Shown one piece after another: positions 24,449 to 50,289 of a stretch of 64,000 nucleotides of DNA. Positions within the stretch are counted from its first letter, which is position 1. Every line of letters starts with the position of its first letter. The notes beneath the pieces were generated by a model. That model did no database searches. It worked only from the letters and a program-made list of their open reading frames with translations, and was not told the DNA's origin. A program made the translations under genes and the position numbers. The stretch comes from Minisyncoccota bacterium. GTDB taxonomy: Bacteria > Patescibacteriota > Minisyncoccia > Phycocordibacterales > UBA918. Location: contig JAWKSQ010000003.1 of NCBI GenBank assembly GCA_041389045.1, positions 105,598-169,597 on the forward strand. The letters are read 5' to 3'.

Positions 24449-27400
24449 TCAGGAGTGACTTGGTGGATACTGTGGCTCCGTGACTGGCGGTACTTCAGCT
24501 TTAGGTAACTCTTCTCCGTCATAGCCAATATCAGAAGTGTCATAGTAAGGAGTCTGAGGCGGAATATCATTTACGTTTGGAATACCAAATTCATCAGGAC
24601 GAACCGGGGTATAATTAATCGGAACTACCCGCTCACCACTATCGGCAGTAATCGGTAACGCTCCCGTGCGTGGACGTACTGGAATGTCTGTACTTATTTT
24701 CACACCAGACTGTCCTGGCTTTACCTCAGGGTCGGCAAATTTCTCTAAGAGTTTTGCTACATCTATATTTTCTCCTGGTCTAATCAAAGCTGGGTTACCA
24801 CTCCCTACCCCTAGATCCTTCCACTCTTGTGGTGATAGTGTCCAATTAGGATTTTTTGCATCCGTCAATTCTGGGAACTTGCTATACATCATCTTACTCA
24901 ACTCACCTCGAGTCACTCCTTCTGGTAGTTTCAAATTCTTCAGATCAAACTGATCTACGAGATTTTTGTGGAAGATAGTCGAAACATTGTCACCCGGTTT
25001 CACTATATGCTCTATTTTAGTAACCTGCTCTACAGCACTGACCGATGGTCCTCCAGCAGGCTTTGATATGCTTTCAGTCGCAGTCCCACTACCACTCTCA
25101 ACTTCTGTCTTTACAACGCCAGGTACTGCTTCTGGATTAGGTATTTCACCCCCATTTCCTTTTATAGCATCACCCCAATAACCAGTAACCGAATCATGAT
25201 CGTAAGCACCTGTAGAAAAACCACCGGCCATTGCAGCGGCAACTGTTAGCCTCTTTTGTATCTTAATTCTATCTTGTTTCTCTGACTCAGCGGTAAGTAA
25301 CGCCTCTTCTAATGAATCAAGGTCATTAACGTCAAATTTATCTTGTATATCATCTTGTTTTTGTTCAATCTTCCGCTCCGCCGCGTTTACACCAATTTGT
25401 GTCAACTCATGCACAGACCGAGCAGCATATGTACCCACCACCATTCCTGCGAGCATTCTACCAATCTTAAGCCCACCAAACGCAAGTGCTGTAACGGCGC
25501 CACCTGTAGCGAAACCAAGAATACTAGAGGCAGCAACAGATCCAGCCCTAATTAAGTGCTTGTTTCTCGCTAAGGCTGGCATTATTTTTCGCATTAAAGA
25601 CTTTTGTTCTTCAGACAAAACATAATCTTCATGTAACTTAAGTTGTTCAGCATGCGGTCGTAAAACAAACTTTTGCCCAAAAGCCATTTTTGCTTTTGCA
25701 CTACCTGGCTTGTACCATGGCTCATTACCACCATCTTCAGTCCCACCCCGAACCCTAGCTCGAGCAGTAAGTGCTTGGTCTAACTTAACAGCGTATTCCT
25801 TACGTTTTTCTTTATAATCCTTTTCTAGTGCCACCAGCTCTGGCGGAAACTCTGATCTAATACCAAGCTTCTTGAATAGACCATCTACCGCTGACCCAAA
25901 TTTAGTTCTTTCTCCCAACTCTTTATAATGATTCTTTAGCGCTTCATCGTATGTTTTCTTTGCATTTCTGTACTCAGACTTAAAGAGCATACCTTCTGTC
26001 CCATCTTCATTTTTCTTGCGTAAACTAGATTTGGCTTCACTGTACTCAGACTCAAGATTACGATTCTCGACAGATGAGGTACTTTCATCAGGCGCCACTG
26101 CCTCAGAGTTAAAGTTTTTAAATTCAGAAATCAATACTGAATTATTAAACGTCTGATCGCCAACTTGTTTAAAGAGTAAAACCTTATCACCTTGAACACG
26201 CACGATTATCCAATCGTCTTCAATTTCTCCAGATTCACCCTTTGATTTAACTTTAGCCGCTTCTAGTAAGGCGTTTTGGAAAGCTCGTATTTTTTCTTGT
26301 TTTTCTTCAACAGATGAAGCTTGTTCTACATCAAAGTAAATAGATTCAGCCAATTGTCTTGCCTGTGCAAATGCAGATCCATGATTCAATCCCAGCAATG
26401 ACAGAGCTGACACTAAATCTGTATAGTACCTTGCCAATGAATCTACCTTTTTTTTAATTATTTCAAATTCATCATTTTTCTCTTTAGACTCCTGTTTATC
26501 AAAATCTTCTTTTCTAGCTTCTTCCGTATTTACTTTTGGCTTGTCTACTGTTGCATCAGGAGTTTTTTTCACTGAATTAACCACCTTCCTCAACTCCTCC
26601 ATCTTTACATTCAAATTTTTTAAATACTTTCTTTTTTTATTTAAGACAATATTAGGATCTGTTTCAGTAATATCATCAATAAGCTTCAAAGTCTTACCCA
26701 CTTCAACCAAAGCCGAATTGGAACCTTCGCCATGTTCTGTTAAGTATGTAACAGCGTCCTCGTACTCATGTTTAATTTCTTCAATGTTCGATAAAATTTC
26801 CTCGGATGTTTGTTCTTCCGACTTGATCTCTACTTTATCTAGAAGCACTGGATCAATTTCACGACCATGCAAAAGCTCTGACATTATTTTCAGTAATGCT
26901 TTTCTTTCCTCAAGTATAGACTCTAATTTTTTTGGGTCTTTTGTATCTCTATACTCTTTTCGTTTATCAGAGATCGAACGAAAGACAGGATTTATACGAG
27001 TCATATAATGACTTCTTCTTTCATCTTCGTTATAACCCGCTAAATACAAAATTGTACCCACATCCTTTCTTATATCCCCCAAAGCAAGCCATCTCTCTTC
27101 AAACATTGTTTCATCAGCATTTTTCCAACGCTCAAAATATTCCGCTAATCTAAGCTTTTCATTTTCATATTCGGTATTAGCTCCCTCACCTTCACTTTCA
27201 TTAGCAAAATCACCTAACTGCTCATAAAAACTTGGACCATTTAAGATATCTGAATCTAAAATCTCAACCCCACCAGCCCCATCAAAAACCTCATCCCCAC
27301 CAACCGCCGGAACTGAGTAATTTTCAAAAGAATGTGGTTTAACAAAAACTTTATTATCAATATTTACTTTACCTATTGTAGGTATAGTTGTTGTATTCGG

Positions 27401-29200
27401 TAAGTCCTGGGAATTATCTCTCTGCAAAGAATTTTGTACAAGATTAAACAGCTTATTTAATTCTTCCTGGACTCCCGCAGACAATTTTTCTCTTTTATTT
27501 TCATCATCTTCTAATACTGACTCACTAGTCAGTCTCTTAACTTCGTTAACTATATCTCCAACTTTTCTTAGAATCTCCTCCTTCTCTACACGGTCGATAT
27601 CTTGCTCTTCCACAACCAGTTTGACCTCATCAAATATTCTATCAATACCCTTATAGACAGGAGTCCCGTCAGAGTTAATAGTTTCAAAAACGGACCACTG
27701 GCCACCCCTATAAAGCTCAGTCAATTCTGAAACAGACAGAGTACCAGACTCCTGTTGTTCTTTAGGCTCCACCATAGCTTTATCCTCCGTTGAGGTGTGA
27801 GTACCCTCAACACTTTTAGCCACTAAAAAATTTGCCACTTCTGCCAACAACCTCTCATAGTAGGCACTTCTTTCATTCTTTAAATCTAGTTTATCTCCCC
27901 TATTATCATGAAAAGCCTTATTTACAGAGGAAATATCTGTACGAATGTCTCGCGCGATACTATTATTTAAAAATTCATTAATTTGTTCTTGTGTAAATCC
28001 TTCATGTCTAAGTATAAACCCGAGTTCATCCCAAACCTCGTCAATCTTTTTAAAAGGAGAACCATCATGACCAGGTGGTACTTTGAAAACTCTATTGTCT
28101 CTTTTCTTATACATTTCAGTCAATTGGACCACGTAGTTTCTATCTAATTCTTGTCTAGAGTCAAGATCATTTTCAGGTAAGGCAGAATTATCATCTGCAC
28201 CAGACTCTAATACTGAAACTTTAGTGACTTTATCCGGTGCAGGACTCGCCACGTCCACAGGCAACACAACTTTACTTACACCATCTTTTTTGATTTCATC
28301 AAGAAGCGTTTGACAAGAATTTATAAAATTAATATAGACCTCACTGAGTTTCTCTAAGGACTTCTCTAAGTTATCTTCATTAGAGATGTTCGATGTCTTT
28401 AGAATATCATTATATATAGATATTATTTTATCATATGCCACAGACTGTCTTTTCTGAGTTTTTTTAGACAATTCTTTATAGACTCGATTAAAATCATCAA
28501 ATCTTTTTGTAGCCTCTTCTCTAAATTCAACAATTTTATTTTTTAATGAATCAAAATTTTCACTATTTGACTCCAAGATAGTTGAACCCGTTACCGCTTC
28601 ATGATTTTGTTTTTCTGACATTTTATTACGATCAATTATATCATCTGGAGTGTGGTATTTGATATCTATTCCGCTATCTGGAGATTGTGATACCTTAGCA
28701 GAAAAATGCGCATTCAATATTCTAGCCGCCTCTTCAGGATCATCGATTCCAAAACCTGAATCAGAAACAGCATTTTTAGTTAAAGTAAGAATAATTTCTT
28801 GTCTTTTACTCTCTAAATTACTTTTAGACTTCTTAAGTAACTCTAGTTTCTTCTTAAACTCAACATTATCAGAATCACCATTTAAAATAATGGTATTAAT
28901 TTCTTCAATAACTTTATTTACTTCCTCCCATGAAATTGTAGCTTCAGTGAGTAAGTCCGCTACCATTAATAATTCATCGTTATTAATTTCATTAGCTATA
29001 GACTGAATTGTCTTGTACTCTTGTTCTGCCAAATCTTTGACTCTCTGTACTTCTGTAACATCTTCGTTCGATGGAGCATATTCATTTACACTAATATCCC
29101 CTTCTAAACTTTCTGAAGCATCGTGCAAAAAACGTTTATTTCTTTTAGAACCGGAGCCTCTGCTATTTTTAGTCAAATAGCCATCGCCTTCTATGTCCAT
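24449..29200 (-). CDS. Giant (1583 aa) membrane-anchored coiled-coil protein with a C-terminal LysM-like region
   Basis: An uninterrupted 4.75-kb ORF. The Glu/Lys-rich N-terminal part is about 1200 aa. Hydrophobic segments are encoded near 25425-25545 and 25203-25250. A LysM-like segment (HIVKPGDNVSTIF to LIRPGENIDV) lies at about 24757-25010, followed by a Pro-rich tail. Confidence 0.7.
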   Translation of the reverse strand: MDIEGDGYLTKNSRGSGSKRNKRFLHDASESLEGDISVNEYAPSNEDVTEVQRVKDLAEQEYKTIQSIANEINNDELLMVADLLTEATISWEEVNKVIEEINTIILNGDSDNVEFKKKLELLKKSKSNLESKRQEIILTLTKNAVSDSGFGIDDPEEAARILNAHFSAKVSQSPDSGIDIKYHTPDDIIDRNKMSEKQNHEAVTGSTILESNSENFDSLKNKIVEFREEATKRFDDFNRVYKELSKKTQKRQSVAYDKIISIYNDILKTSNISNEDNLEKSLEKLSEVYINFINSCQTLLDEIKKDGVSKVVLPVDVASPAPDKVTKVSVLESGADDNSALPENDLDSRQELDRNYVVQLTEMYKKRDNRVFKVPPGHDGSPFKKIDEVWDELGFILRHEGFTQEQINEFLNNSIARDIRTDISSVNKAFHDNRGDKLDLKNERSAYYERLLAEVANFLVAKSVEGTHTSTEDKAMVEPKEQQESGTLSVSELTELYRGGQWSVFETINSDGTPVYKGIDRIFDEVKLVVEEQDIDRVEKEEILRKVGDIVNEVKRLTSESVLEDDENKREKLSAGVQEELNKLFNLVQNSLQRDNSQDLPNTTTIPTIGKVNIDNKVFVKPHSFENYSVPAVGGDEVFDGAGGVEILDSDILNGPSFYEQLGDFANESEGEGANTEYENEKLRLAEYFERWKNADETMFEERWLALGDIRKDVGTILYLAGYNEDERRSHYMTRINPVFRSISDKRKEYRDTKDPKKLESILEERKALLKIMSELLHGREIDPVLLDKVEIKSEEQTSEEILSNIEEIKHEYEDAVTYLTEHGEGSNSALVEVGKTLKLIDDITETDPNIVLNKKRKYLKNLNVKMEELRKVVNSVKKTPDATVDKPKVNTEEARKEDFDKQESKEKNDEFEIIKKKVDSLARYYTDLVSALSLLGLNHGSAFAQARQLAESIYFDVEQASSVEEKQEKIRAFQNALLEAAKVKSKGESGEIEDDWIIVRVQGDKVLLFKQVGDQTFNNSVLISEFKNFNSEAVAPDESTSSVENRNLESEYSEAKSSLRKKNEDGTEGMLFKSEYRNAKKTYDEALKNHYKELGERTKFGSAVDGLFKKLGIRSEFPPELVALEKDYKEKRKEYAVKLDQALTARARVRGGTEDGGNEPWYKPGSAKAKMAFGQKFVLRPHAEQLKLHEDYVLSEEQKSLMRKIMPALARNKHLIRAGSVAASSILGFATGGAVTALAFGGLKIGRMLAGMVVGTYAARSVHELTQIGVNAAERKIEQKQDDIQDKFDVNDLDSLEEALLTAESEKQDRIKIQKRLTVAAAMAGGFSTGAYDHDSVTGYWGDAIKGNGGEIPNPEAVPGVVKTEVESGSGTATESISKPAGGPSVSAVEQVTKIEHIVKPGDNVSTIFHKNLVDQFDLKNLKLPEGVTRGELSKMMYSKFPELTDAKNPNWTLSPQEWKDLGVGSGNPALIRPGENIDVAKLLEKFADPEVKPGQSGVKISTDIPVRPRTGALPITADSGERVVPINYTPVRPDEFGIPNVNDIPPQTPYYDTSDIGYDGEELPKAEVPPVTEPQYPPSHS

Positions 29201-29216
29201 AGTTACCCTTCATAAG

Positions 29217-31982
29217 TTACACTATACCACCTCCGACTGGGGCTGGGGCCGGTTTTTTCTCATAGCGAGCGGATATCTCCGCTTCGACTTCAGCCCGTGG
29301 GCGACCATAGGCGCGCGCGCTCATTTCTATCATTGCCTTAACCCTACTTGGATCAGACGTAATCGGTGGACGCATCGCCACACTAAAAGGCTTGGTCGGT
29401 ACACCGTTGGCCAAAATACGTACTAGCGCATTGTAGTTTGGGGTATTCATAATATCTTTAGCCGTAAAGACGGGGGCAAACTGCTGTTCCAAGAACTGAG
29501 CGTCTTCAGAACCCACTCGGAAAGCTACTAGTGAACCAACGTTACCAAAGACAGCATCTCTGATGTCTTGATCCAGTTGCGCAATAAACTGATGGACCAC
29601 AGTTAGACTAAGCTTGTACTTTCTCGCCTCAGAGAGAATAGAAGCGATAGCCGGAGTTGAAACGTTCTGGAACTCGTCTATGTGTAGGTAGAAAGGTGGG
29701 AAGCTACGAGTCGGATCGTCCACGCGAGACAAAGCGGCCATTAAGATCTTGCCGACAAAAATCATACCGATCAGATTGGCGTTGATTTCACCCAAGCGAC
29801 CTTTAGATAGATTGACCAAAAGAATTTTTTTCTCATCCATCACTTGGCGGAAGTTAAAGGCAGACTTTTGTTGACCGATAATTGGTCGCATGTAGTCGTT
29901 AGCGGTAAAGACATCGAACTTAGACACGATATACGGCACGATATTTTCAAGTGACGCTTCGCCGCCGGCTTTGGTCGCAATCTCCGTCCAGAACTGAACC
30001 ACTACCGGATTTTTGGCCTTGGACAGTTTGTAGCGACGATACTGTGCATCGACCATCACTCTCGAAATATCCATCAAAGTATTGCCACTTTCTGGATCTT
30101 CCATTACAAGCATGGTGGCATTACGGAAATACTGTTCAAACATTGGTCCCATACTTTCGGGATTTGCGCCGTACAGTTTTTGGAAAATAGAGAAGAGTTC
30201 ATTAACCACGAAGGTTTTTTGCTCAGGCTTGTTGATATCGTACTCCAGCATATTAAGTCCAACCACATTATCCATCCGTGACGGGTCAAAATAAATCACA
30301 TCTTTGGCTCGTTCCGGTGGCATAGCACCAAGCACCTCCTCAATGTCGGTACCATGAGGATCGATCATACAAACACCATTACCCATTTGGATATCCTGAA
30401 TAATAGTATTAGTCATAAACTTGGACTTTCCAGTTCCTGTTTGACCAATAATGTAGAGATGCCTCATGCGATCGAGCTCGGTCATGTAGATAGTCTTTTC
30501 TGAACCACGGTGACGATTTTCACCCAGAATAGTTCCTTCTGTCGGCATATCGGTTGGGGCGGCCGCGGTAGCCGACTGAGACTGCTTAAATTGTGGTGAA
30601 CTGAGGATGCCGTTAGCTGGAAAATGAATGACCGTCGACAGTTCTTTTAGTGACATTGGGATAGTGGCGTTACTCAAAAACTCGCGAAAGGCAAAAGCTT
30701 TCTGCAGACGCAGGAGTGAACCCTTAGCACGCTTAAAAGTAATCGCGTTTCCTTCCACCAAATCAAACTGATTGAAGGTCGACTCTATCTCAGTCATGAT
30801 TTGTTCAGCGCGATTGGGACTTGAGGCCGACACGGCTAGACGAATATTCGTCTCCACAATGTCAGTTTCAATCTTGCGATTAAAAACTTCTATTTTGTCA
30901 CTATCTGGTGAAGTCGTGTCTTTAACTTCGTCTTTTTTGTTCTTGCTAGCAAAAAACAAATCTGTCACCGCTCCCATCAACTCTCCCCCAACCGTACTGC
31001 GAGAAATAGCATCACTAGCACTTTTACCTTTTTGAATTTCCTTAATTATATCTTCGTAGGTTTTGCGGTACTTTTTCTGGGGATGTCTAATCACAAACTG
31101 CACCGCCGCGCCACCACCTTCACGTTCAATCTTAGAAAAAGCATTAAGAATAACCGCTAGTGGGTCGGAAGAAAAACCGTCGGCAGTGCGTAGTGGGTAG
31201 ATAGGGTGCTTTTTTAGTGACGCTTCAGCCACAATATTAGTGCCACCTTCTACGAAGATGTTGTAGTCATGGGCCTTGATAGTCAGTTCTGCATGAGGAA
31301 AGAGTGACAGTGTCTGCTTTTCAAACAGAGTCACAAAGGCATTTGGTACCGCTACATAAAAAACAATGTCGTCACTATTATCAGCCACCGCTATCTCAAT
31401 AACAAAATGATTTTCCGACTGCTTAGAACCGATTGTTCTCAGTCCGGCAAAAAGTTGTTCCATCATGCCAACCAATTCGGTTATTTGGTATTCCCTACCA
31501 TCCGCCTCTTTGATTTCTGGCAAAGTGACTTCAAACAAAGTCATACTAAGCATTTGCCACGGCGGAACGTCTTCCTTCAGATCCTGCACCTTGGCACCAG
31601 AGCGAATTCGCTCCACCATCTGCCGATGCACCTCGTCCACTAAGTAAGCATTATCCATTTTCTCAAGGACTGACAGAGCATTGCGAATCCCCTTCTCTTC
31701 AGCCATTGCCATAATCTCTGCTACCGGGTCATGAGCTTGCGTCGCCAACTCCACAGAAGCCGCTAACTCATGATCATTTAAACCATGTTCCTTATCTAAG
31801 ATGAGTTTCGGTGTAAACTGCGCATATTCTTTTATTTCTTGCTTACCAACAGTCTCGATGTCAGTACGGTCAATTTCTGGCGAACGTGAAAGTAACTCTC
31901 GTTCACGGAGAGCCACTTTTTCACGCAAGTACTTAAGCTCTTCCTCCGGTGAGGAAAATTGTTGTGGGACACCTTCTGGCAT
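29217..31982 (-). CDS. VirD4/TraG/TrwB-like (type IV coupling protein family) P-loop ATPase with a long unknown N-terminal domain
   Basis: Walker A GQTGTGKS (about 30423-30446), Walker B FYLHIDEFQNV (about 29661-29693) and ARKYKLSLTVVHQF. No TM helix was seen. Confidence 0.65.
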   Translation of the reverse strand: MPEGVPQQFSSPEEELKYLREKVALRERELLSRSPEIDRTDIETVGKQEIKEYAQFTPKLILDKEHGLNDHELAASVELATQAHDPVAEIMAMAEEKGIRNALSVLEKMDNAYLVDEVHRQMVERIRSGAKVQDLKEDVPPWQMLSMTLFEVTLPEIKEADGREYQITELVGMMEQLFAGLRTIGSKQSENHFVIEIAVADNSDDIVFYVAVPNAFVTLFEKQTLSLFPHAELTIKAHDYNIFVEGGTNIVAEASLKKHPIYPLRTADGFSSDPLAVILNAFSKIEREGGGAAVQFVIRHPQKKYRKTYEDIIKEIQKGKSASDAISRSTVGGELMGAVTDLFFASKNKKDEVKDTTSPDSDKIEVFNRKIETDIVETNIRLAVSASSPNRAEQIMTEIESTFNQFDLVEGNAITFKRAKGSLLRLQKAFAFREFLSNATIPMSLKELSTVIHFPANGILSSPQFKQSQSATAAAPTDMPTEGTILGENRHRGSEKTIYMTELDRMRHLYIIGQTGTGKSKFMTNTIIQDIQMGNGVCMIDPHGTDIEEVLGAMPPERAKDVIYFDPSRMDNVVGLNMLEYDINKPEQKTFVVNELFSIFQKLYGANPESMGPMFEQYFRNATMLVMEDPESGNTLMDISRVMVDAQYRRYKLSKAKNPVVVQFWTEIATKAGGEASLENIVPYIVSKFDVFTANDYMRPIIGQQKSAFNFRQVMDEKKILLVNLSKGRLGEINANLIGMIFVGKILMAALSRVDDPTRSFPPFYLHIDEFQNVSTPAIASILSEARKYKLSLTVVHQFIAQLDQDIRDAVFGNVGSLVAFRVGSEDAQFLEQQFAPVFTAKDIMNTPNYNALVRILANGVPTKPFSVAMRPPITSDPSRVKAMIEMSARAYGRPRAEVEAEISARYEKKPAPAPVGGGIV

Positions 31983-32065
31983 ACCAATATTGTACAGTAA
32001 CTGTTTACATTTTTACTCGACCATATCCCCTCCCGTCTGGAGCGATATTAGAACTTATTATTCAC

Positions 32066-32540
32066 AAAATCACTTAATTAAAACTTGAAGATACATGAAT
32101 TTCTCAATCTCCTTATATGAATCATCAGCAAGATTGTATGCATTGAATCGATTTCCTTTCCTACTGTATCCACCATGTAGTGAAGGACCACCACCTCCGA
32201 CTTGCGCATCTCTACTGACAAAATATGTTTCTGAATGAAGTCGCGACCTAGAATTTTCAAAATGTTTAAGGTTGGTGACAAAGTCTGAAACGATCTGTCT
32301 TTCTATCCTTTCTTTTTATCAAATAAATCTTCGATGGCTTGATCTTTATTGATATTTTTATCCAGTCTTTAAGATTATATAATTGAAAAGAAAACATAGA
32401 TATAATCTCTTGCTCTCTATAGAAATTCCGTTTCTCTGAAATACGTTATTCTCAACCTCTTTTACTTTTTTATACCATCGTTTTCCGCTCCCATTGCTCA
32501 AGATAATCATCCCCTCGATATTTTGGTGTAAAACTTTCAT
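32066..32540 (-). pseudogene. Decayed P-loop NTPase/kinase-like gene
   Basis: The N-terminus MKVLHQNIEGMIILSNGSGKRWYKK looks like a P-loop. Reading then needs frame changes (NLKDWIKISIK, DKNINKDQAIEDLFDKKK, ERIERQIVSDFVTNLKHF). Confidence 0.35.
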
Positions 32541-32574
32541 TTTATTACTTTAGCGAATAGTCGTCCGGGACAAG

Positions 32575-33066
32575 CTTAGAACTTTTTTAACAGAAATTCT
32601 GAAAATCTTTAGGGGACGAAACGATAGAGATTGCTCGGACTAACTTTTATAGCACCTTCTATTCGTGGTCTTTCGCCTCGAGTGGAAACAATCCATAGAA
32701 GCTGAAGCTAAATTTCTCAATGCTTCTGGCGCCAATTCAGGCCTACTTTCATTACGATGTGTACCACCTTTTTTAAAAGCTGGAACGCGCATCGCACACT
32801 GAGTAATCAAGATAAATTACCAAGTCTGCGCTCCGTAAACGTTCTGCCATTTTTTCATCTATGTATCCTTCAATTACCCATTTCTCTCCTCGATCAGTGC
32901 TTCATGTTTTTTAGATACTCCTCTTCAGGTACCTCTTCCCAATTTCCTTCCAGAATAATTGGTCCATATGAAAAAGGAAGTTGTGTTTTTGATGCAACAA
33001 CTCTTGAAGTAAAACTTTTTCAGATGCACTTATTCCGAGAAGTGCAATTCTTTGTATTCTTCTCAT
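32575..33066 (-). pseudogene. Decayed topology-modulation/adenylate-kinase-like AAA ATPase
   Basis: The ATG at 33066 opens MRRIQRIALLGISASEKVLLQEL, a substituted P-loop. FHMDQLFWKE, EVPEEEYLKNM and WVIEGYIDEKMAERLRSADLVIYLD follow in shifted frames. The 3' end coordinate is approximate. Confidence 0.5.
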
Positions 33067-33125
33067 AGAATACCATCTTGCTGGCCGTCTGGTACAAAGT
33101 TGGAACTTTCTACAAAACCAATCTC

Positions 33126-33188
33126 TATACCCAATTCATGTACAGAGCCAGCTCTAGAGCTAGTTCTGTACTACCAACATCTTCTTAA
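33126..33188. repeat. Left copy of a roughly 60-bp direct repeat with a palindromic core
   Basis: tataccc..gtacag..agctctagagct..tgtactac..catcttc.ttaa recurs at 33750-33807. Confidence 0.7.
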
Positions 33189-33220
33189 GAACATGCAAAG
33201 AGGTACATAATTAACCACAT

Positions 33221-33640
33221 TTATTTAAGCCACCCTGGCAAAACTTCCTTAATCTTAATAGCTTCGTCAAATTCATGATAGTTATTTGTCAGTTCTTTGC
33301 CCACACCTATATCTCTATTGGCAACAAAAAATGGTTCCGGTGAGATATCTAAATCAACCCCTACTGACAGATTATAAGTTTCTCTGCATCATGATTTGTA
33401 TATAGGGCAGGATCGTTTTCCGGTGGAAGACATATTGATTAGTAGTAGACGATAAGTAGGCCACTTATCCAAATAGAGTCTTTTTCTTCCTGGCTTAAGT
33501 CTTGATAATCTGTGACTGATAGAGTTTTATCGTGACCTTCTATAAACTTCCAAACAATTTCCCCTTTAGTATTACTTGATCGGCAAAGACTCCTTTACCT
33601 TGGATATTTGACTCAGCGACCTTATTTTAACTAAATACAT
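33221..33640 (-). pseudogene. SET-domain (protein-lysine methyltransferase-like) gene, frameshifted
   Basis: Segments in different frames read NIQGKGVFADQVILKG, IVWKFIEGHDKTLSVTDYQDL, PALYTNHDAE and ANRDIGVGKELTNNYHEFDE. These match the SET N-terminal GxGVFA, NHS-like and GEELT.Y blocks. Confidence 0.5.
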
Positions 33641-33677
33641 AATGAGACTTTAGTATACCAAGATATTGACCTTTTAG

Positions 33678-33719
33678 ACCCTAAACACCCCAAATGTACT
33701 GGTTTGGGGTGTTTAGGGT
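33678..33719 (+). terminator. 17-bp hairpin followed by a T-rich tract
   Basis: accctaaacaccccaaa / tttggggtgtttagggt with an 8-nt loop, then tgttattatt. Confidence 0.4.
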
Positions 33720-33749
33720 TGTTATTATTAGAGTTTTAAACTGGCCGAT

Positions 33750-33807
33750 TATACCCGTACAGAACTAGCTCTAGAGCTGGCTTGTACTACATCACATCTT
33801 CCTTAAT
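33750..33807. repeat. Right copy of the roughly 60-bp direct repeat
   Basis: See 33126-33188. The central palindrome arms are swapped relative to the left copy. Confidence 0.7.
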
Positions 33808-33847
33808 TTGATAGTGTTCGGTTAGCAAGATGCATCCGCCCGATAAA

Positions 33848-33876
33848 TTGACAAAAGATATATCTGTGATAAAATA
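33848..33876 (+). promoter_or_regulatory. Sigma70-like promoter TTGACA-16-TAAAAT
   Basis: TTGACA at 33848-33853 and taaaat at 33870-33875, preceded by tgtga. Confidence 0.5.
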
Positions 33877-33954
33877 CTAATATTATTAACCTAGGCCACT
33901 AGATTAGGCCAATGTGGCTAATGATAGTGCTCTTTGAATAAAAGGAGAAAGAAC

Positions 33955-34452
33955 ATGACACAGTTGTCACAAAAGGTCATACTCAATTACAGCATGTCGC
34001 TTGCTGACATGCTCACTGCATGTAACATGTCGGCGGTCGACCCTATCGCCTCTGAAGTGGTGACAGATGAATACTTCCCATCAAAGGCACGGGAGTGGTT
34101 GCAATGCCGTTCCTGGAAAGACTTGGGTGAAAAATGGCTCTATCGGGCAGATCGCGCTCGAAGTATTCTCATGGAAAAGGGTTTGCGTCCGGCAACTTTG
34201 CCGGAAATGCTCATGTTCATGGTGAACAACCCGGAAGAAGCCACTAACCATGCCATTGTCGCATTGAGTCCCGCGACCATCAGTCCCGTTGGGAGATTCA
34301 AGAACTGGTACATGGAATACCGACGTTCATTCGTCCCAACAATCATCAACCATACACGCTTCCACAACGGAGCACGGTTGGAGCGTGTTGGCAAACCGGA
34401 AATCTGGCTTGCACCCGAAATGATAGCTGGTTTCGCGGTAATACCAGTATGA
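33955..34452 (+). CDS. Hypothetical protein (165 aa) of cassette D
   Basis: AAGGAG lies 8 nt upstream of the ATG at 33955. The ORF is intact and a hairpin follows downstream. No family recognised. Confidence 0.55.
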   Translation: MTQLSQKVILNYSMSLADMLTACNMSAVDPIASEVVTDEYFPSKAREWLQCRSWKDLGEKWLYRADRARSILMEKGLRPATLPEMLMFMVNNPEEATNHAIVALSPATISPVGRFKNWYMEYRRSFVPTIINHTRFHNGARLERVGKPEIWLAPEMIAGFAVIPV

Positions 34453-34490
34453 ACTGGTGCTTTGCAGTGCTTCCGGAATGAAGTATTACA

Positions 34491-34536
34491 GCCAGATAGT
34501 AATATCTGGCTCACAAAAACACCTCGGGTGGCTTTT
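34491..34536 (+). terminator. Hairpins plus T-run ending cassette D
   Basis: gccagata-gtaa-tatctggc at 34491-34510, then cacc-tcg-ggtg followed by gctttt. Confidence 0.45.
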
Positions 34537-35223
34537 ATATAATTAAATAGTAAACTAATTAAACAAAGGATTAACCGTACTTTTTCTATATTCTTTTACT
34601 CTAGAAACAAATTCTAATTCTTCTCCATGGATTCATAAATTGTGGTAATCCATAACTATCACCTTCAAATCTTAACCCTTCTCCTAAATTAGGATAACCT
34701 TCATTTTTCCATCAATATAGCGACTTGCGTACTGGGATTGCTGATTCATTAAAACTCCTGGCTACATCAGAAAATGACACAACCCTTTCTCATCTACTTC
34801 GAATTTTTACCAGGTCTCTACTTTCAAAATTAATCATTCCAGAAATTATATCAATAATTTGTTATACATTTAAACAGTAACCAAAAGTTGCCTCTATCCG
34901 TTATACAAGTATATGAAATGGCATCCTTTTTAAATGCAACTTTGGCAGTCACATACATCAGCGCCCTTGTGCTGTTTATGCATTGTTAATCAATCCGTCA
35001 CGATACAAGACACCCTACTCGATGGTATCGGGGTCATATCTTTTGTCTTTTCAGCAGCGGTGATGGCTTTTCTATTTTCTACCAACCAGTACTCAAGCTT
35101 ATCGAAAACAAAAAGCCGAAGCTTTAGCGTATTTTTAAAAACCTTAGGTATATTCGGAGCCATCACGATAACCGTATTAACACTAGTCAGTCTGCGTAAG
35201 AAGCTAATGAAACTAGATAGGTA

Positions 35224-35367
35224 CCTACCGCTTCGCGAGTACAGCTTGTTTGTAGGCGTCGAGGTGTTCGAGGGCGATACCAGTTCCGGTCGCAACACAG
35301 AAGAGGGCTTCGGCTAATTGTGCCTTGACGCCGGTGTGACGCTTAACCAATTCCTGGAAATTACGGA
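35224..35367 (-). repeat. Diverged second copy of the last ~48 codons of mreB2
   Basis: It translates to LLRNFQELVKRHTGVKAQLAEALFCVATGTGIALEHLDAYKQAVLAKR* against QLRNFPELVKRRTGVKAQLANEALFCVATGTGIALEHLDAYKQAVLAKR* at 35908-36054. Confidence 0.85.
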
Positions 35368-35907
35368 GTAAAGAAAACTGCTCAATTTGATCGATTGATC
35401 TCTATGAATTAAGCAGCTGTCATCAAGACGACATCTAAACCAGTAAAGAACATCTACCCCATGTATCCTCGACGAACTCTTATACGCCCTGATACTGAAC
35501 CAAGCTCAGTTACAAGGTAACGGTCTGCGACTATAGGGAACCGGAAGTGACTCAATCGCTTAAGCTTGCGTCGAGCCAGTCTAAACGACGGTTAGCATCA
35601 TCTAATTCACCTCCAGTGCTCGAAATCGTGCCTCTCTACGGCTGTCAGCAGTCGCAAACCGTTCATCAAGCATCCGCACTACCTCCTCATTGTTAATTCA
35701 ACATAATTCACCTCTCATTTGAGTAGAGCGCCGTGGCACTATTTTACGTGTGCTGTCAACTCGCGACAGCACGCGACCCCTATGGAAGATGATAACTTCC
35801 ACTCCTCATGCTGACCAATCGCTTTGCAATACAGCAAAAAAACTAGTAAACACTAGTAACAATAATGCCTCACACTATCTAAACGTCAAACTTTTTTATT
35901 AAAATTA
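35368..35907 (-). mobile_element. Cassette G: 0.54-kb promoter-to-terminator module between the two mreB2 3'-end copies
   Basis: TTGACG at 35889-35884, then a 23-codon ORF MLDERFATADSRREARFRALEVN behind GAGGAGG, a repeated gaggtgaatta motif, and a terminator at 35371-35416. Confidence 0.35.
35371..35416 (-). terminator. Terminator of cassette G
   Basis: ctgctcaatt (35378-35387) pairs with aattaagcag (35407-35416). On the minus strand ttttctt follows. Confidence 0.45.
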
Positions 35908-35908
35908 C

Positions 35909-36914
35909 CTACCGTTTTGCCAATACAGCTTGTTTGTAGGCGTCGAGGTGTTCGAGGGCGATACCAGTTCCGGTCGCAACACAGAAGAGGGCTTCGTTGG
36001 CTAATTGTGCCTTGACGCCGGTGCGACGCTTCACCAGCTCGGGAAAATTACGCAGTTGTGAAGTTCCACCAGTCATAATCACACCACCATCAATAATGTC
36101 AGCCAACTCCGGTGGTGTATTTTGAAAAACGTCTTTAATAGCTTTAACCATCTCTCTAAGCTCCTTACTAATTGCTCGCACCACTTCATTGGTGCGAATC
36201 TCCGTCGTCCGTGGCAAACCAGACAGTACATCGCGTCCCTTGATGTCCATAGTCAACTCTTCTTCAGTGGTAAGGCTGAACCAACCGTAATTTTGATTTC
36301 CTCAGCGGTCTTATCGCCAATTGAAAGATTCCTGGTCTTTTTGACATAATCCACAATCGCGGTCAATTCTATTGCCGGCACACTTTACGGAGTTGGCCGC
36401 TACAATGCCACCGAGAGAAATGACTGCGACGTCTATAGTACCTCCACCCACATCGACAATCATGTCCTTGTGGTTCATAGATTGGTATACCAGCGCCGAT
36501 CGCTGCCAAAATCGGCTCCTTAACTACGTAAGCATTACGAGCACCGGCTTTAATCGTCGCCTCTACCACCGCCCGTCTTTCGGTCGAAGTTACTCCCGCT
36601 GGCACTGACACCATCACGTCTGGCTTAAAAATATTGAAACGTGGCAAGGCCTTACGTAAGAAATAGCGAAGCATCGTCTCAGTGACACGATAGTCAGCAA
36701 TGACTCCATCTTTCATCGGCCGGTAGGCTCTAATACTGTCTGGTGTTCGTCCAATCATCCGCTTTGCTTCGGCGCCGACTGCCAACACCTGATTATCTTC
36801 AGATATGGCCACCACTGAGGGTTCATTCAGCACTATCCCTTGTCCAGGTACAAATACAAGAATACTAGTGGTACCAAGATCGATACCAATCTTCGGAGTA
36901 AATTTATTAAACAT
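35909..36914 (-). pseudogene. Second MreB paralog, frameshifted
   Basis: The N-terminal ORF 36914-36369 (IGIDLGTTSILVF) loses frame after IYEPQG. The C-terminal ORF 36256-35909 carries VIMTGGTSQLRNF. Confidence 0.75.
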
Positions 36915-36987: not shown

Positions 36988-38487
36988 ATGAAAAATATTG
37001 GACAATCAATCTCTGACTTACGCGAAACCAAAGGCCTGACCCAAAGTGACCTAGCTAAGGCGCTCAAGACCACTCAGAGCGCCGTAGCCCGCATGGAGAG
37101 CGGTAAACAAAACATCAGCGCTGACATGCTTAGAAAAATCAGTAAAGCCCTGGGTAAAAACCTCATCACCCTCTCCCCTGGCACCGTCAATATTCAAATA
37201 GAGGGTAATAAAAAACTGACTGGCACTATCGAAACTAACACTTCTAAAAATGGTGCGGTTGGTCTACTCTGTGCCAGTTTACTCAACCGTGGCACCACTA
37301 CCCTGCATCACATGCCTCGCATCGAAGAAGTCCACCGGATTATTGAAGTGCTGGAAAGTATTGGTGTTCGCGTGGAATGGAGTGGTAGTACCATCAAAAT
37401 CACTCCCCCCAAGAAGTTCGACCTAAAGAAAATCGACGTTGAAGCGGCTCACCGCACTCGCAGTATCGTCATGTTTATCGGACCCTTGATTCACCTGATG
37501 GAGAAATTCAAACTTCCCCAATCTGGCGGTTGCAAACTCGGTAGTCGTACCGTGAAGCCTCATTTCTACGCCCTAGAACACTTTGGTGTCACTATCAATA
37601 CTACTAGCGACGCCTATGAGGTAAGTAAAGTCCCGGCCTCCCCTTCAGAAATTATTCTCTATGAGTCTGGTGACACCGTCACCGAAAACGCTCTTTTTGC
37701 GGCCGCTAAGACGCCTGGTACCACAACTATCAAATACACTACGTCCAACTACATGGTGCAAGAAGTTTGTACGTTTCTAACTCTACTAGGTGTGAAAATT
37801 GAAGGTTTTGGCACTACTACTCTCAAAGTAACTGGAATCGAAGAAATTAACCAAAATATTGAATATACCCTGTCTGAAGATCCAACTGACTCAATGTTCT
37901 TTATTGCCGCCGCTATCGTCACCAACTCCACTATCACTATCACCCGCTGTCCGATTGAATTCTTGGAGCTAGAACTCCTTAAGCTTGAGAAAATGGGCTT
38001 CGAATACAAGAAATCCAAACCCTATCTTAGTCACAATGGAGTCACAAAACTAGTTGATATTACTACCAAAGCGTCAAAGCTCACCGCGTTACATGAAAAA
38101 GTTTACGGTCGCCCTTACCCTGGCCTCAACATCGATAACCTCCCTTTCTTTGCCGTCATAGCCACTCAAGCTGAAGGACAGACTCTTATCCATGACTGGG
38201 TTTATGAAAAGCGAGCCATCTACTTTACCGAACTAGACAAACTCGGCGCCGAGACGGTTCTAGCCGACCCACATCGTATCTACATCACCGGACCAACGCC
38301 ACTGCGCGCTGCCGAACTCATTTGTCCACCAGCCCTTCGTCCGGCTACTATCCTGCTGATTGCCATGCTCGGTGCCAAAGGTACTTCAATCCTACGTAAC
38401 ATCTACAGCATCAACCGTGGCTACGAAAAGTTGATCGAAAGACTTGGGTCCCTCGGCGCCCACGTCTCATACCTAGACGAGTTTTAA
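36988..38487 (+). CDS. murA: XRE-type HTH domain fused to UDP-N-acetylglucosamine 1-carboxyvinyltransferase
   Basis: The N-terminus IGQSISDLRETKGLTQSDLAKALKTTQSAVARMESGKQN is an HTH_3-like domain. The MurA/EPT fold follows, including LPQSGGCKLGSRTVKPH with the catalytic Cys. An alternative ATG lies at 36970. The track ORF start at 36805 is antisense to mreB2. Confidence 0.8.
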   Translation: MKNIGQSISDLRETKGLTQSDLAKALKTTQSAVARMESGKQNISADMLRKISKALGKNLITLSPGTVNIQIEGNKKLTGTIETNTSKNGAVGLLCASLLNRGTTTLHHMPRIEEVHRIIEVLESIGVRVEWSGSTIKITPPKKFDLKKIDVEAAHRTRSIVMFIGPLIHLMEKFKLPQSGGCKLGSRTVKPHFYALEHFGVTINTTSDAYEVSKVPASPSEIILYESGDTVTENALFAAAKTPGTTTIKYTTSNYMVQEVCTFLTLLGVKIEGFGTTTLKVTGIEEINQNIEYTLSEDPTDSMFFIAAAIVTNSTITITRCPIEFLELELLKLEKMGFEYKKSKPYLSHNGVTKLVDITTKASKLTALHEKVYGRPYPGLNIDNLPFFAVIATQAEGQTLIHDWVYEKRAIYFTELDKLGAETVLADPHRIYITGPTPLRAAELICPPALRPATILLIAMLGAKGTSILRNIYSINRGYEKLIERLGSLGAHVSYLDEF

Positions 38488-44127: not shown

Positions 44128-44199
44128 TCCGCGGTAGCTCAGTGGTAGAGCAGGTCGCTGTTAACGACTTGGTCGTAGGTTCGAATCCTACCCGCGGAG
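44128..44199 (+). tRNA. tRNA-Asn (anticodon GTT)
   Basis: Manual cloverleaf: acceptor tccgcgg/ccgcgga, D arm gctc-agtggta-gagc, anticodon arm ggtcg-ctGTTaa-cgact, T arm gtagg-ttcgaat-cctac. CCA is not encoded. Confidence 0.9.
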
Positions 44200-44243
44200 C
44201 AATATAAAAGTCCCCTTTTGGGGATTTTTATATTGCTCCGCGG
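44192..44243. terminator. 24-bp inverted repeat that includes the tRNA 3' acceptor strand (bidirectional-terminator-like)
   Basis: ccgcggagcaatataaaagtcccc-tttt-ggggatttttatattgctccgcgg. Confidence 0.6.
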
Positions 44244-44368
44244 AACAAGCAAACAATTTTGCTTGTGTGTAGGATTCGAAAAGATGGAGTATATCGCACG
44301 AGCGAAGCGAAGTACGATACGACATCTGTACAGCCCATGTAATGGGAGAAACTCCTACCCGCGGAGCC
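44197..44368 (+). repeat. Repeat E1: ~170-nt element ending in a split copy of the tRNA-Asn T arm and acceptor
   Basis: It is about 93% identical by eye to 45546-45712. It contains gtagg-attcgaa, then an insert of ~73 nt, then cctac-ccgcgga-gcc. Confidence 0.8.
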
Positions 44369-44372
44369 AACA

Positions 44373-44401
44373 TTGACATAGCACACTTTGTGTGCTATTG
44401 T
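44373..44401 (+). promoter_or_regulatory. Promoter TTGACA-17-TATTGT with an embedded palindrome ATAGCACAC-TTT-GTGTGCTAT
   Basis: The -35 is at 44373-44378, the -10 at 44396-44401 and the palindrome at 44378-44398. Confidence 0.6.
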
Positions 44402-44448: not shown

Positions 44449-44919
44449 ATGACCAAAATCATTTGTGCCTTCGCAGGCACAGGTAAGACAACAGCTTCCC
44501 AGAGCACTCTGTGGCACGTACGAGATAGCGACAGTGATGAATTTCGGTTCATTAACGCACGTCTCAATCGAAAACCAGAAGGTCAAAACCCGCTCTGGCC
44601 ACAAAACTACATCGACCACGCCGTCACGGAATATGCCAAGGGTGACTTTGATGCAATCCTGATGTCCGCGTACGTCGAACTTCTGCCCAGGATTGCAGAG
44701 CGTATTCCACTCACCTACGTCTATCCATCACTGGATATGAAAGATGAGTTCGAGATGCTTTATCGCAATCGTGGCAATCCCAACTGGCTGGTAAGTCTGC
44801 TCATTAACCACTACGATGAATGGATCACGGCACTGATGGCAATGGATGGGCATCACGTCGTTTTGAAACCTGACCAGTACCTGACTGATGTTCTGCCTGA
44901 AATATTGGCAGGAACCTAG
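44449..44919 (+). CDS. Small P-loop NTPase (156 aa) of cassette A
   Basis: Walker A FAGTGKTT at residues 8-15. GAGG lies 8 nt upstream of the ATG. The ORF is intact and has its own terminator. Confidence 0.6.
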   Translation: MTKIICAFAGTGKTTASQSTLWHVRDSDSDEFRFINARLNRKPEGQNPLWPQNYIDHAVTEYAKGDFDAILMSAYVELLPRIAERIPLTYVYPSLDMKDEFEMLYRNRGNPNWLVSLLINHYDEWITALMAMDGHHVVLKPDQYLTDVLPEILAGT

Positions 44920-45500: not shown

Positions 45501-45545
45501 TACCTCAATCCCAAACCGTAGCGTTCGAACATCATTCACCCAGCG

Positions 45546-45712
45546 GAGCAATATAAAAGTCCCTTTGGGATTTTTTTATATTGCTCCTGGAACAAGCAAA
45601 CAATTTTGCTTGTGTGTAGGGTCAAAAGATGGAGTATATCGCACGAGCGAAGCGAAGTACGATACGACATCTGTAAGCCCATGTAATGGGAGAAATTCCT
45701 ACCCACGAAGAA
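45546..45712 (+). repeat. Repeat E2 (second copy of E1, tRNA-like parts more decayed)
   Basis: It aligns with 44197-44368. The differences concentrate in gtagggtcaaaag and cctacccacgaag. Confidence 0.8.
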
Positions 45713-45715
45713 ATA

Positions 45716-45752
45716 TTGACAAGGCCATTATACATTGTATAATGGCCTTGTC
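45716..45752 (+). promoter_or_regulatory. Consensus promoter TTGACA-16-TATAAT inside a perfect 15-bp-arm palindrome
   Basis: gacaaggccattata-cattg-tataatggccttgtc at 45718-45752. Confidence 0.65.
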
Positions 45753-48763: not shown

Positions 48764-49667
48764 ATGAAAGCAGTTATTGCCAACGGTTATGGTGCCCCAG
48801 AAGTTTTAAGTGTCAAAGAAGTTGACAGACCAAAACCTAAAAGTAACGAAATATTAATTAAAGTGACGGCGTCTTCACTCAACTCCGGTGATGTCCGCAT
48901 GCGCGCACTAGATGGAGGTGACGGTATTAAAGGTTTTATAGCCAAGATTGTCATCCGCTTGTTAGTAGGTATAACAAAACCAAAACGTATTCCCGGGAGT
49001 GTTTTAGCAGGAGATTGTCGAGGTTGGTGAGAGTGTAACTCGCTTTAAAGTTGGTGATGAAGTCTATGCCATGGCCGGCTTTAAGTTTGGTGCTTTTGCA
49101 GAATACTGCGTGTTACCCGAGACTGGCACAATTGCCCTAAAACCTAAGACCGCAAGCTTTGAGGAAGCGAGCACTCTGCCGTTTGGTGGCACCACCGCAC
49201 TTTATTTTTTACGGAAAGCTGGCACGAAACCTGGTAAGAAGGTGCTTATCTATGGATCGACTGGTGCCGTTGGTACTTCAGCCGTACAAGTTGCCAAGTA
49301 TCTTGGTGCAGAAGTAATCGCTGTCAGTGGTCCAGATGGCATCAAACTAACAACCAGATTGGGCGCTTCAAAAGTCTACAACTACAAAGAAACTACTCTG
49401 GAAAATATTACAGAAACATTTGATGTTATCTTTGATGCGGTGGGTAAAATATCTAAGAACGAAGCAATCCACTTACTAGCTGACAATGGTCAATATGTGA
49501 CAGTGGCCGGCTTAGATGTAGCCAAGGAAGGATCAGAGGGTCTGGAAGAACTGGCTCGTATGTATGATGAAGGCAAGTTAGTGGCCGTCATTGATAAAAC
49601 TTTCCCCTTGGACCAAATTGTTGAAGCAAATCACTATGTCGATTCGGGTCGAAAAAAGGTAGCGTAG
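48764..49667 (+). pseudogene. Zinc-type alcohol dehydrogenase / quinone oxidoreductase family (MDR), one frame change
   Basis: ORF 48764-49030 and ORF 49071-49667 join near 49008-49013 (LAG / EIVEVGESVTRFKVGDEV). The Rossmann motif YGSTGAVG is present. Confidence 0.7.
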
Positions 49668-49775
49668 TCATCAGCATTTAGTTTTAATAGTTTAATATTT
49701 GATATCGACTATTTCCTTGTCTTAACATTGAGTCGAGGCCATTCTTTTCAAGATTTATATAGAGAAATGAATGTT

Positions 49776-50250: not shown

Positions 50251-50289
50251 TCTTTGTCATATGGTATTACTATAGCAAATGTTTAAATC

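Follow-up and report, generated by a model that had tools for sequence, protein, structure and literature searches.

In Escherichia coli K-12, the final codons of icd come from the e14 prophage, which displaces the gene's own end (PMC13626634). At icd, both e14 and phage 21 leave a full-length gene whose last ~50 codons come from the inserted DNA, with the displaced C-terminal fragment on the far side of the insertion. Here we describe a similar layout at mreB2 in a Minisyncoccota bacterium (GTDB lineage Bacteria; Patescibacteriota; Minisyncoccia; Phycocordibacterales; UBA918). The locus lies in a stretch of 64,000 nucleotides (positions 105,598 to 169,597 of contig JAWKSQ010000003.1, assembly GCA_041389045.1), which we call the window and whose own numbering is used throughout. 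The 3' end of mreB2 is present twice, in direct orientation, around 536 nt of orphan DNA, and we tentatively read this arrangement as the scar of a recombination or integration event that replaced the end of the gene. Few mobile elements have been recognised in the tiny genomes of Patescibacteria, whose ways of gaining accessory DNA are poorly understood.

Integrated elements may also persist as remnants. Cis-mobilizable elements (CIMEs) keep attL and attR, have lost their recombination genes, and often adjoin other decayed elements (PMC5704250). The mreB2 locus resembles CIMEs and the tandem accretion of elements at ICE/IME attachment sites, such as those related to ICESt1 at fda in Streptococcus thermophilus, in that att-like repeats are kept while integration and transfer genes are gone. 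CIMEs are recognised by means of an autonomous relative that uses the same att sites, whereas none was found for the mreB2 unit: no mreB2 3' fragment stands beside an integrase in 84 mreB2 loci, and the identical core of the repeat described below is absent from IMG/VR. The unit also differs from CIMEs in being unusually small and in having no recognisable remnant genes between its repeats.

Foreign DNA can also be acquired by homology-facilitated illegitimate recombination in natural transformation, as in Acinetobacter and Streptococcus pneumoniae. Like the mreB2 locus, such events place foreign DNA beside a conserved anchor, with no recombinase, one arbitrary junction and case-specific cargo, but they classically replace or insert DNA without leaving the anchor directly repeated, and do not by themselves create an identical core between diverged arms. 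In the mitochondria of Allomyces, a mobile insertion in atp6 carries a foreign C-terminal coding segment together with an endonuclease open reading frame (ORF). There, as in the window, a foreign C terminus is fused in frame and the original 3' end is left downstream, untranslated; the Allomyces insertion differs in being mitochondrial and in encoding its own endonuclease, while no nuclease is seen in the insert at mreB2.

Two copies of the mreB2 3' end

mreB2 is encoded on the minus strand (35909..36914; Pfam MreB_Mbl). Its 3' end belongs to a pair of direct minus-strand repeats of ~90% identity, one of 148 nt at 35222-35369 (copy A) and one of 151 nt at 35906-36056 (copy B), which align in two blocks (35222-35312 with 35906-35996, and 35312-35369 with 35999-36056) interrupted by a single 3-nt indel. 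The copies are separated by 536 nt, giving a unit of 684 nt from start to start. A whole-window self-comparison returned only two families of long repeats, the mreB2 tail and a tRNA-Asn repeat that is considered further below.

Copy B comprises the last 48 codons of mreB2, the TAG stop (35909-35911) and 3 further nt, and would take the role of attL. Its coding part (35912-36055) reads LRNFPELVKRRTGVKAQLANEALF...AVLAKR* and matches the C termini of orthologues, including the consensus residues P5, R11 and N20. The orphan copy A has 47 codons, a stop codon and 3 further nt, with no mreB sequence upstream; its coding part (35228-35368) reads LRNFQELVKRHTGVKAQLA-EALF...AVLAKR*. It would either take the role of attR or represent a displaced or foreign 3' end. 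Both copies end in CGG TAG GTA, and in each the homology stops 3 nt past the stop codon.

Codon-by-codon comparison of the copies identified 12 substitutions and one codon indel. Eight of the differing codons are synonymous (9 nt), two are non-synonymous (P to Q and R to H in copy A; 3 nt), and one, encoding N, is missing from copy A. The final VLAKR is encoded by gta ttg gca aaa cgg in copy B and by gta ctc gcg aag cgg in copy A. An initial annotation of this DNA had described a duplication of ~48 mreB2 codons with mostly synonymous differences, these same tail codons and one in-frame 3-nt indel; alignment and codon comparison reproduce each of these features, although the indel is uncertain given a possible consensus error.

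Divergence between the copies

When 12 substitutions are placed at random, the mean numbers of changed codons are 7.3 non-synonymous and 1.9 synonymous, against the 2 and 8 observed, and the probability of two or fewer non-synonymous codons among 12 random substitutions in the affected codons is 5e-5. The substitutions are also confined in position: of the 141 nt that align, only the outer 45 contain any of the 12, which leaves the central 97 nt identical (P=1e-6). This identical core (35240..35335 in copy A, matching 35924-36022 in copy B; minus strand) consists of 73 nt and 24 nt flanking the 3-nt indel, and we infer that it is a crossover or gene-conversion tract; only 76 of 93 positions are identical between the core and the best orthologue. 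Outside the core, the heads of the two copies differ by 22% and their tails by 27%, values equal to those between mreB2 of the window and orthologues from other species. It is in the head of copy A, on the upstream side of the 73-nt core, that both non-synonymous changes and the indel are found; each of the four tail differences is synonymous.

Because the changes are biased towards synonymous sites and clustered at the ends, the copies are better described as two mreB alleles joined by recombination than as a duplication that has drifted. Judged from the alignment, the pattern indicates alleles that diverged while both encoded MreB and that then crossed over or were homogenised in their centre. 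The initial annotation had likewise derived the copies from different mreB alleles, a view that the synonymous bias and the 22-27% divergence of the arms uphold. Its further suggestion that both were kept under selection does not hold for copy A, in which R11, invariant in 78 of 78 orthologues, is replaced by H, and in which a codon is lost; neither P5Q nor the loss of N20 is seen in any of the 78. Comparison of head and tail with 81 orthologues did not resolve which copy is native, because synonymous sites are saturated.

The intervening 536 nt

The insert (35370..35905, minus strand) has a G+C content of 43.7%, compared with 42.0% for the window and 48% for mreB2, and stands out only from the 36% G+C DNA on its left; it is therefore not GC-rich, contrary to the initial annotation. 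The remaining features of the initial annotation can be located in the insert, all on the minus strand, with two of them qualified. The hexamers proposed as a promoter, TTGACG-16-CATTAT (35889-35862), lie 17 nt from copy B and match at 9 of 12 positions, which is a match at chance level: the region has 7 promoter-like sites where 5.0 are expected, and so shows no enrichment. The proposed terminator corresponds to a hairpin at ~35416-35371 (-16 kcal/mol) with the U-tract UUUUCUUU next to it, abutting copy A, but a terminator scanner made no call. Between these lie a 23-codon ORF without homologue (35673-35602), preceded by AGGAGG as a ribosome-binding sequence; a repeated gaggtgaatta-type motif, GAGGTGAATTA, whose two occurrences (35714-35704 and 35613-35603) are the only ones in the window (0.02 expected); and a gtgctgtc...gacagcac hairpin (35775-35747) that folds at -16.3 kcal/mol. 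The fold of the whole insert on the mreB-sense strand is more stable than that of shuffled controls (z=-3.7), while sliding 270-nt windows detected no exceptional structure within it.

The insert contains no ORF longer than 50 amino acids and no terminal inverted repeats, and ORF, protein and Pfam scans agree with the initial annotation that it lacks a recombinase. Protein searches of its frames on both strands returned no homologue. BLAST found no relatives in 80 related loci or in phage and plasmid collections, and six wobble-tolerant probes spread across the insert had no match in IMG/VR or the JGI metagenomes, so that the occurrence in other metagenomic contexts that the initial annotation had proposed looking for was not found. 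Against Rfam 15, there was no gathering-score match anywhere in the window, and none with E<=5 in 32000-36100 except one chance microRNA match. Altogether, no second copy or relative of the insert was found in the window, 98 related loci, IMG/VR, the JGI metagenomes, plasmids, phages, Rfam or the protein database.

A transposon or miniature inverted-repeat transposable element is not compatible with the absence of terminal inverted repeats, the 148-nt diverged repeat and the single-copy insert. Used as a pattern for finding relatives, the pair of GAGGTGAATTA motifs matched only coding tandem repeats in two viral contigs, and an 'arm-type' repeat, TTTACTRGTTT, near both ends of the insert was statistically unconvincing.

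The corresponding site in relatives

We compared the window with 80 species-level GTDB loci containing mreB2 orthologues and with four JGI metagenome loci. The gene following mreB2 in the window encodes a VirD4/TraG-like ATPase of 921 amino acids (29217..31982, minus strand), and in 47 of the loci (43 GTDB and 4 JGI) mreB2 is followed by an orthologue of this gene on the same strand; these 47 relatives provide the uninterrupted downstream regions that the initial annotation had proposed to look for. The spacer between the two genes is ~60 nt long in the four JGI loci, and 38 of the 43 GTDB relatives have spacers of 49-680 nt. In the other five GTDB relatives it measures 1.4-3.1 kb and contains unrelated accessory genes, without an integrase or repeats. 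The same spacer is 3.9 kb in the window, so the DNA absent from relatives amounts to ~3.9 kb and not to 0.54 kb: it consists of the 0.54-kb insert, copy A and a further 3.2 kb (32040-35221). Neither the insert nor the 3.2 kb resembles anything in the 84 loci. All 84 also lack a second mreB2 end of similar length, and with it the shared arrangement of identical copies that would have pointed to simple tandem duplication.

The left edge of the inserted DNA is marked by 31983..32039 (minus strand), the retained native spacer and promoter region of the VirD4-like gene, in which GGGGAT...TACAAT is shared with relatives (spacers of nine relatives compared). A third copy of the mreB tail was not found at the left edge of the 3.2-kb island. 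In this clade, the position directly behind the mreB2 stop codon is a hot spot of accessory DNA. Two of the fetched related loci, which are numbered with the prefix L, share an insertion of ~130 nt in the mreB2/VirD4-like spacer at this hot spot (L002 7608-7792 and L004 3464-3645); in L002, it is bounded by the inverted repeats GGAGCTGAGAAA ... TTTCGCAGCTCC. Exact-protein look-ups for strains of the same species, using the neighbouring MurA, P0001, 119-aa and 177-aa proteins, found none on record.

Integrity of mreB2 and its surroundings

In this assembly, mreB2 is interrupted. Relative to its orthologues, it has frameshifting deletions of 2 nt at ~36465, 2 nt at ~36362 and 1 nt at ~36265, and an in-frame deletion of 3 nt at ~36103. 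The encoded sequence nevertheless deviates at 0 of 170 conserved residues, compared with an average of 1.1 in relatives, and the orthologues are intact in the 80 GTDB and four JGI loci (amino acid identity up to 94% among the GTDB loci). A gene for a protein of 172 amino acids in the 3.2-kb stretch has three 1-nt gaps relative to its homologues (~34070-34140). Throughout ~33.9-36.5 kb, the conserved genes show only such small deletions and no unusual substitutions, and the flanking genes are intact. Damage consisting only of indels suggests either errors in the consensus of a stretch that varies between strains or decay that is very recent and biased towards deletions. With either cause, it cannot be claimed that the locus as it stands is kept under selection.

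Doubled gene ends in other loci

To place the mreB2 repeat in context, we scanned 3,263 ORFs of >=90 amino acids, from all fetched loci and the window, for last eight residues and stop codon that recur anywhere downstream. There were four matches: the window, L033, L043 and L075. The match in L033 (3330-3440), in which identical 55-nt copies flank a run of N, is a scaffolding artefact and provides a negative control for such scans, leaving three natural cases.

L043 comes from another species and its mreB2 is again the affected gene (5738-5898). YKRTILAKR* is encoded twice, with 101 nt between the copies; the repeat spans 9-10 codons (30 nt) and has 6 differences, all synonymous. Its insert is a single copy of the ~100-nt structured module described below. 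Orthologue comparison did not resolve the native copy here either, synonymous sites being saturated. In L075, the affected gene is dprA (1741-2502), where IEESLGEIRLI* (12 codons) is encoded twice with 690 nt between the copies. The first 16 nt of this repeat are identical and are followed by 5 synonymous differences; the insert contains a promoter-like site, a small hairpin RNA, a terminator and an antisense ORF of 153 amino acids without a Pfam match. No recombinase is present in either insert, and both loci come from independent, short-read assemblies. The inserts of the three natural cases are mutually unrelated and their repeats differ in length (48, 9-10 and 12 codons); they therefore do not define one element family. 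A weaker case is found in L018 (5675-5880), where a 28-nt repeat has 4 mismatches and both copies end in TGA.

A structured module beside tRNA genes

The tRNA-Asn repeat of the window consists of two copies of one unit (44174-44378 and 45517-45721), each containing a structured module (44264-44366 and 45611-45710). It was considered as a second instance of the phenomenon at mreB2 and rejected: it is a conserved structured module, not a similar insertion scar. A covariance model built here (R1) identified 32 modules of ~85-105 nt in 99 sources, with true members scoring 25-104 bits, and the module has no family match in Rfam. The insert at mreB2 contains no R1 module; scores in 31900-36200 reach at most 7.3 bits (E=0.37, filters off), and that maximum lies outside the insert. 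Pattern matches to the module in seven IMG/VR contigs were discarded, as none matched the covariance model.

In modules of the tRNA type, AGGATTCGAARA is followed by P1, the P2 hairpin, P1', TGTACNG, the P3 hairpin with a TGTAA loop, AGAAAY, and a copy of the tRNA T-stem and acceptor 3' strand. These modules lie downstream of tRNA-Asn (tRNA-Trp in L003), flanked by 14-20-nt repeats of the tRNA 3' end, and compensatory changes are found at 12 of 19 predicted pairs in the first module alignment. Outside the window, they occur in L003 (7197-7299), L006 (3671-3776), L007 (3240-3462), L008 (1161-1264), L015 (708-809), L022 (1-95), L025 (2541-2646), L038 (2818-2913), L042 (620-713) and L087 (2216-2320).

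The second subtype is composed of GTGAGAAAG, a hairpin, CGCAAGAC, P1, P2, P1', TGGACAG and P3, with compensatory changes at 19 of 27 predicted pairs (A3). Its members occupy intergenic sites and tandem arrays: L043 (5773-5845) and L026 (11106-11174 and 19883-19951), both with modules in the mreB2/VirD4-like spacer; L016 (3532-3605); L018 (5766-5853 and 19529-19624); L014 (1876-1962); and L011 (407-686) and L038 (3125-3190), in which the module follows sequence resembling a tRNA 5' half. Between the two tRNA-Asn units of the window, an ORF of 156 amino acids (44449-44919) matches part of the profile of the phage family phrog_4182 (E=3e-30); this neighbour of tRNA-Asn is a truncated gene of phage origin.

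Origin of the doubled end

The reading that we prefer, while holding it tentatively, is that the locus is a recombination or integration scar in which the 3' end of mreB2 was replaced and which now lacks a recombinase. Foreign DNA would have brought an mreB2 3' end from another Paceibacteria lineage, and a single crossover with the resident gene would have taken place inside the present identical core. Afterwards, the live gene would consist of the host head and the incoming tail, and copy A of the incoming head and the displaced host tail, with the incoming DNA between the copies as for e14 and phage 21 in icd. Under this single-crossover model, the head of copy A would be the only segment never translated, matching the site of all the non-synonymous and indel damage. 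A recombinase may have taken part in the original event; the present insert, 0.54 kb without a recombinase, would therefore be either a deletion remnant or a unit that requires a recombinase in trans, as in CIMEs. The adjacent 3.2 kb would be separate accessory DNA. Excision of the unit would be expected to leave an attB-type junction composed of the head of copy B, the core and the tail of copy A, followed by CCTATCTAG, and to produce a circle with the junction TTTTCTTTA, head of copy A, core, tail of copy B, and ATTTTAAT.

Re-measured here, the e14 repeat at icd and icdC in E. coli K-12 spans 165 nt with 12 differences, in 9 synonymous and 2 non-synonymous codons. The two repeats are alike in that homology ends at or 3 nt past the stop codon, and their substitution counts are nearly equal (12 versus 12). 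They differ in what they enclose, 15 kb with IntE and XisE in e14 as against 536 nt without a gene in the window; moreover, excision has been shown experimentally for e14, whereas the insert at mreB2 is known from its sequence. Judged by the features that identify integrative elements, the locus has repeats at a gene 3' end, with the live copy carrying the consensus C terminus, and an empty site in relatives, and it has no recombinase. The proposal in the initial annotation of an element that integrates into the 3' end of a protein gene is accordingly supported in its layout, its replacement 3' end, its likeness to e14 and its recurrence, while nothing identifies the 0.54 kb as a discrete mobile element.

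A number of observations weigh against a 3'-end-replacing integration. The mismatches of e14 are spread along its repeat, whereas those of the window lie at both ends around the 97-nt identical core, and evolved attP sites do not typically show a long stretch of identity between diverged homologous arms. Later gene conversion could also have produced the identical core. The 3-nt indel between the copies is itself uncertain, because the indel-only damage nearby may be consensus error. No integrase or recombinase is encoded in the insert or among the 20 ORFs of the window that were scanned with Pfam, and the insert has no relative in any collection searched. Across ~1.4 Mb of related loci, no larger element turned up between repeats of this kind, and the unrelated inserts and variable repeat lengths fit general recombination as well as they fit dedicated elements. 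Finally, the single-crossover model leaves the extra 3.2 kb unaccounted for.

Several of these points are addressed by the main alternative, which we regard as unlikely but worth serious consideration, namely homology-facilitated illegitimate recombination after DNA uptake. The 0.54 kb would then be resident DNA downstream of mreB2, and the donor fragment would begin arbitrarily 48 codons before the end of mreB2 and run through the 3.2-kb region of the donor, its left end joined illegitimately and its right end homologously in or near the VirD4-like gene; gene conversion would later have homogenised the centre. Such an event requires no recombinase, and copy A does continue directly into the unique accessory stretch of 3.2 kb. 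That insertions favour the spacer behind mreB2 is seen in five relatives, whose 1.4-3.1 kb of unrelated accessory genes there come with neither integrases nor repeats. Arbitrary repeat lengths (48, 12 and 9-10 codons) and unrelated inserts are accounted for, a functional donor allele explains the mostly synonymous differences, and the repeat in L043 (30 nt with 6 mismatches) is too short and too diverged for homologous recombination. The identical core is harder to accommodate: 97 nt amid 22-27% divergence demands a separate gene conversion between poorly matched repeats. Nor does this explanation say why the head of copy A should have taken all the non-synonymous changes and the indel; the repeat in L075, with its 16-nt identical head and evenly spaced synonymous changes thereafter, resembles a crossover core; and the 0.54 kb is found downstream of mreB2 in 0 of 84 other loci.

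The tidy bounds of the 684-nt unit raise a different possibility, which we consider doubtful: an RNA gene and an mreB2-like site forming a complete and active miniature cassette, moved in trans and belonging to a wider class in Patescibacteria. Its promoter-like hexamers lie close to one repeat and its terminator-like hairpin adjoins the other, and the full-length fold on the mreB strand has z=-3.7. Three independent tiny inserts without recombinase are associated with replacement 3' ends, and none is large; the one in L043 belongs to a module family with strong covariation, other members of which are flanked by 14-20-nt copies of tRNA 3' ends. Equally doubtful is the class itself, which would consist of cassettes of 0.1-0.7 kb, recombinase-less and mostly structured RNA, that insert at gene 3' ends with replacement ends; its targets may include mreB2 twice, dprA and perhaps tRNA-Asn/Trp, and its members may be moved in trans by an enzyme or by an RNA- or single-stranded-DNA-guided mechanism. 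Against the unit at mreB2 being such a cassette, the insert is a single copy with no relative in any collection and no structured module (best score 7 bits), its folding in 270-nt windows is unexceptional, its promoter match is at chance level, and no candidate helper recombinase was seen.

An assembly artefact, either two strain variants of the region downstream of mreB2 strung together or an unreliable local consensus, has in our view a small chance of being the explanation. Consistent with it are the damage to mreB2, which takes the form only of small deletions (2, 2, 1 and 3 nt) with no deviation at the 170 conserved residues, the three 1-nt gaps of the 172-aa gene between intact flanking genes, and the plain scaffolding artefact that produced the look-alike in L033. 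Strain variants, however, should be almost the same along the whole repeat, whereas here head and tail differ by 22-27% with a synonymous bias. An assembler would have no basis for joining the end of the insert to a point 48 codons before the end of mreB2, because no shared sequence links the two. The 684-nt unit is easily spanned by long reads, its 73-nt core is shorter than short reads, and the same pattern is present in the independent short-read assemblies of L043 and L075.

Local duplication of the end of mreB2, with the unused copy then drifting neutrally, would suit the proximity (684 nt) and direct orientation of the copies but is hardly credible, as a tandem event would have repeated the single-copy 0.54 kb as well and drift predicts ~7 non-synonymous versus 2 synonymous codons (observed 2 versus 8; P=5e-5) spread evenly rather than changes only at both ends (P=1e-6).

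Adjacent accessory DNA and other features of the window

The 3.2-kb accessory stretch (32040..35221), absent from relatives, is AT-rich and ORF-poor. Its sole recognisable gene is that of the conserved hypothetical protein of 172 amino acids (33934-34452, plus strand), whose homologues lie in quite different, unrelated neighbourhoods. Compared with homologues in L081-L092, the gene (33851-34452) has ~71-76% DNA identity and only 53-64% protein identity, and conservation runs upstream into the 5' flank; in L087-L091, it adjoins a structured module of the tRNA type. Protein searches of the other frames of the island returned no matches, and an interpretation of 32.5-33.1 kb as a decayed AAA-type ATPase gene was dropped as unsupported (Pfam E=0.11 only, nothing in the protein database). 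A 32-nt near-palindrome with perfectly complementary 26-nt arms occurs twice, at 33140-33171 and 33757-33787, 617 nt apart, with a perfect 17-bp hairpin between them (33678-33719); the arrangement may represent a small element with inverted repeats or a segment capable of inversion.

Beyond the spacer, the VirD4/TraG-like ATPase gene and a gene for a 1583-aa protein without Pfam domain (24449-31982) form a block conserved in dozens of species, and are therefore core genes of the clade and not a conjugative island. On the other side of mreB2, 36988-38487 encodes a MurA-type enzyme (EPSP_synthase fold) with an N-terminal Cro/C1-type helix-turn-helix domain, a full-length fusion that is apparently conserved in related loci. 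Farther away, a zinc-dependent dehydrogenase gene is cut to its C-terminal half (49071-49667) and is followed by ORF-poor DNA (49700-51200); this is another decayed or poorly assembled accessory stretch.

Implications for Patescibacteria

In kind, the scar at mreB2 is a known one, that of 3'-end-replacing integration or recombination; what is new is the target gene and the clade. At this locus, foreign DNA has entered exactly at the end of a conserved cell-shape gene and left its reading frame preserved, and the same signature is seen at mreB2 of another species and at dprA. This small, recurrent set of doubled ends could be a pointer to something less ordinary. The family of structured modules next to tRNA genes is previously undescribed and may deserve a study of its own. 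If the doubled end is merely a decayed scar, it still marks the mreB2/VirD4-like junction as an insertion hot spot, which can serve comparative studies; should a route that is trans-acting or independent of a recombinase prove to be responsible, ultra-small genomes would have a new means of exchanging small RNA genes.

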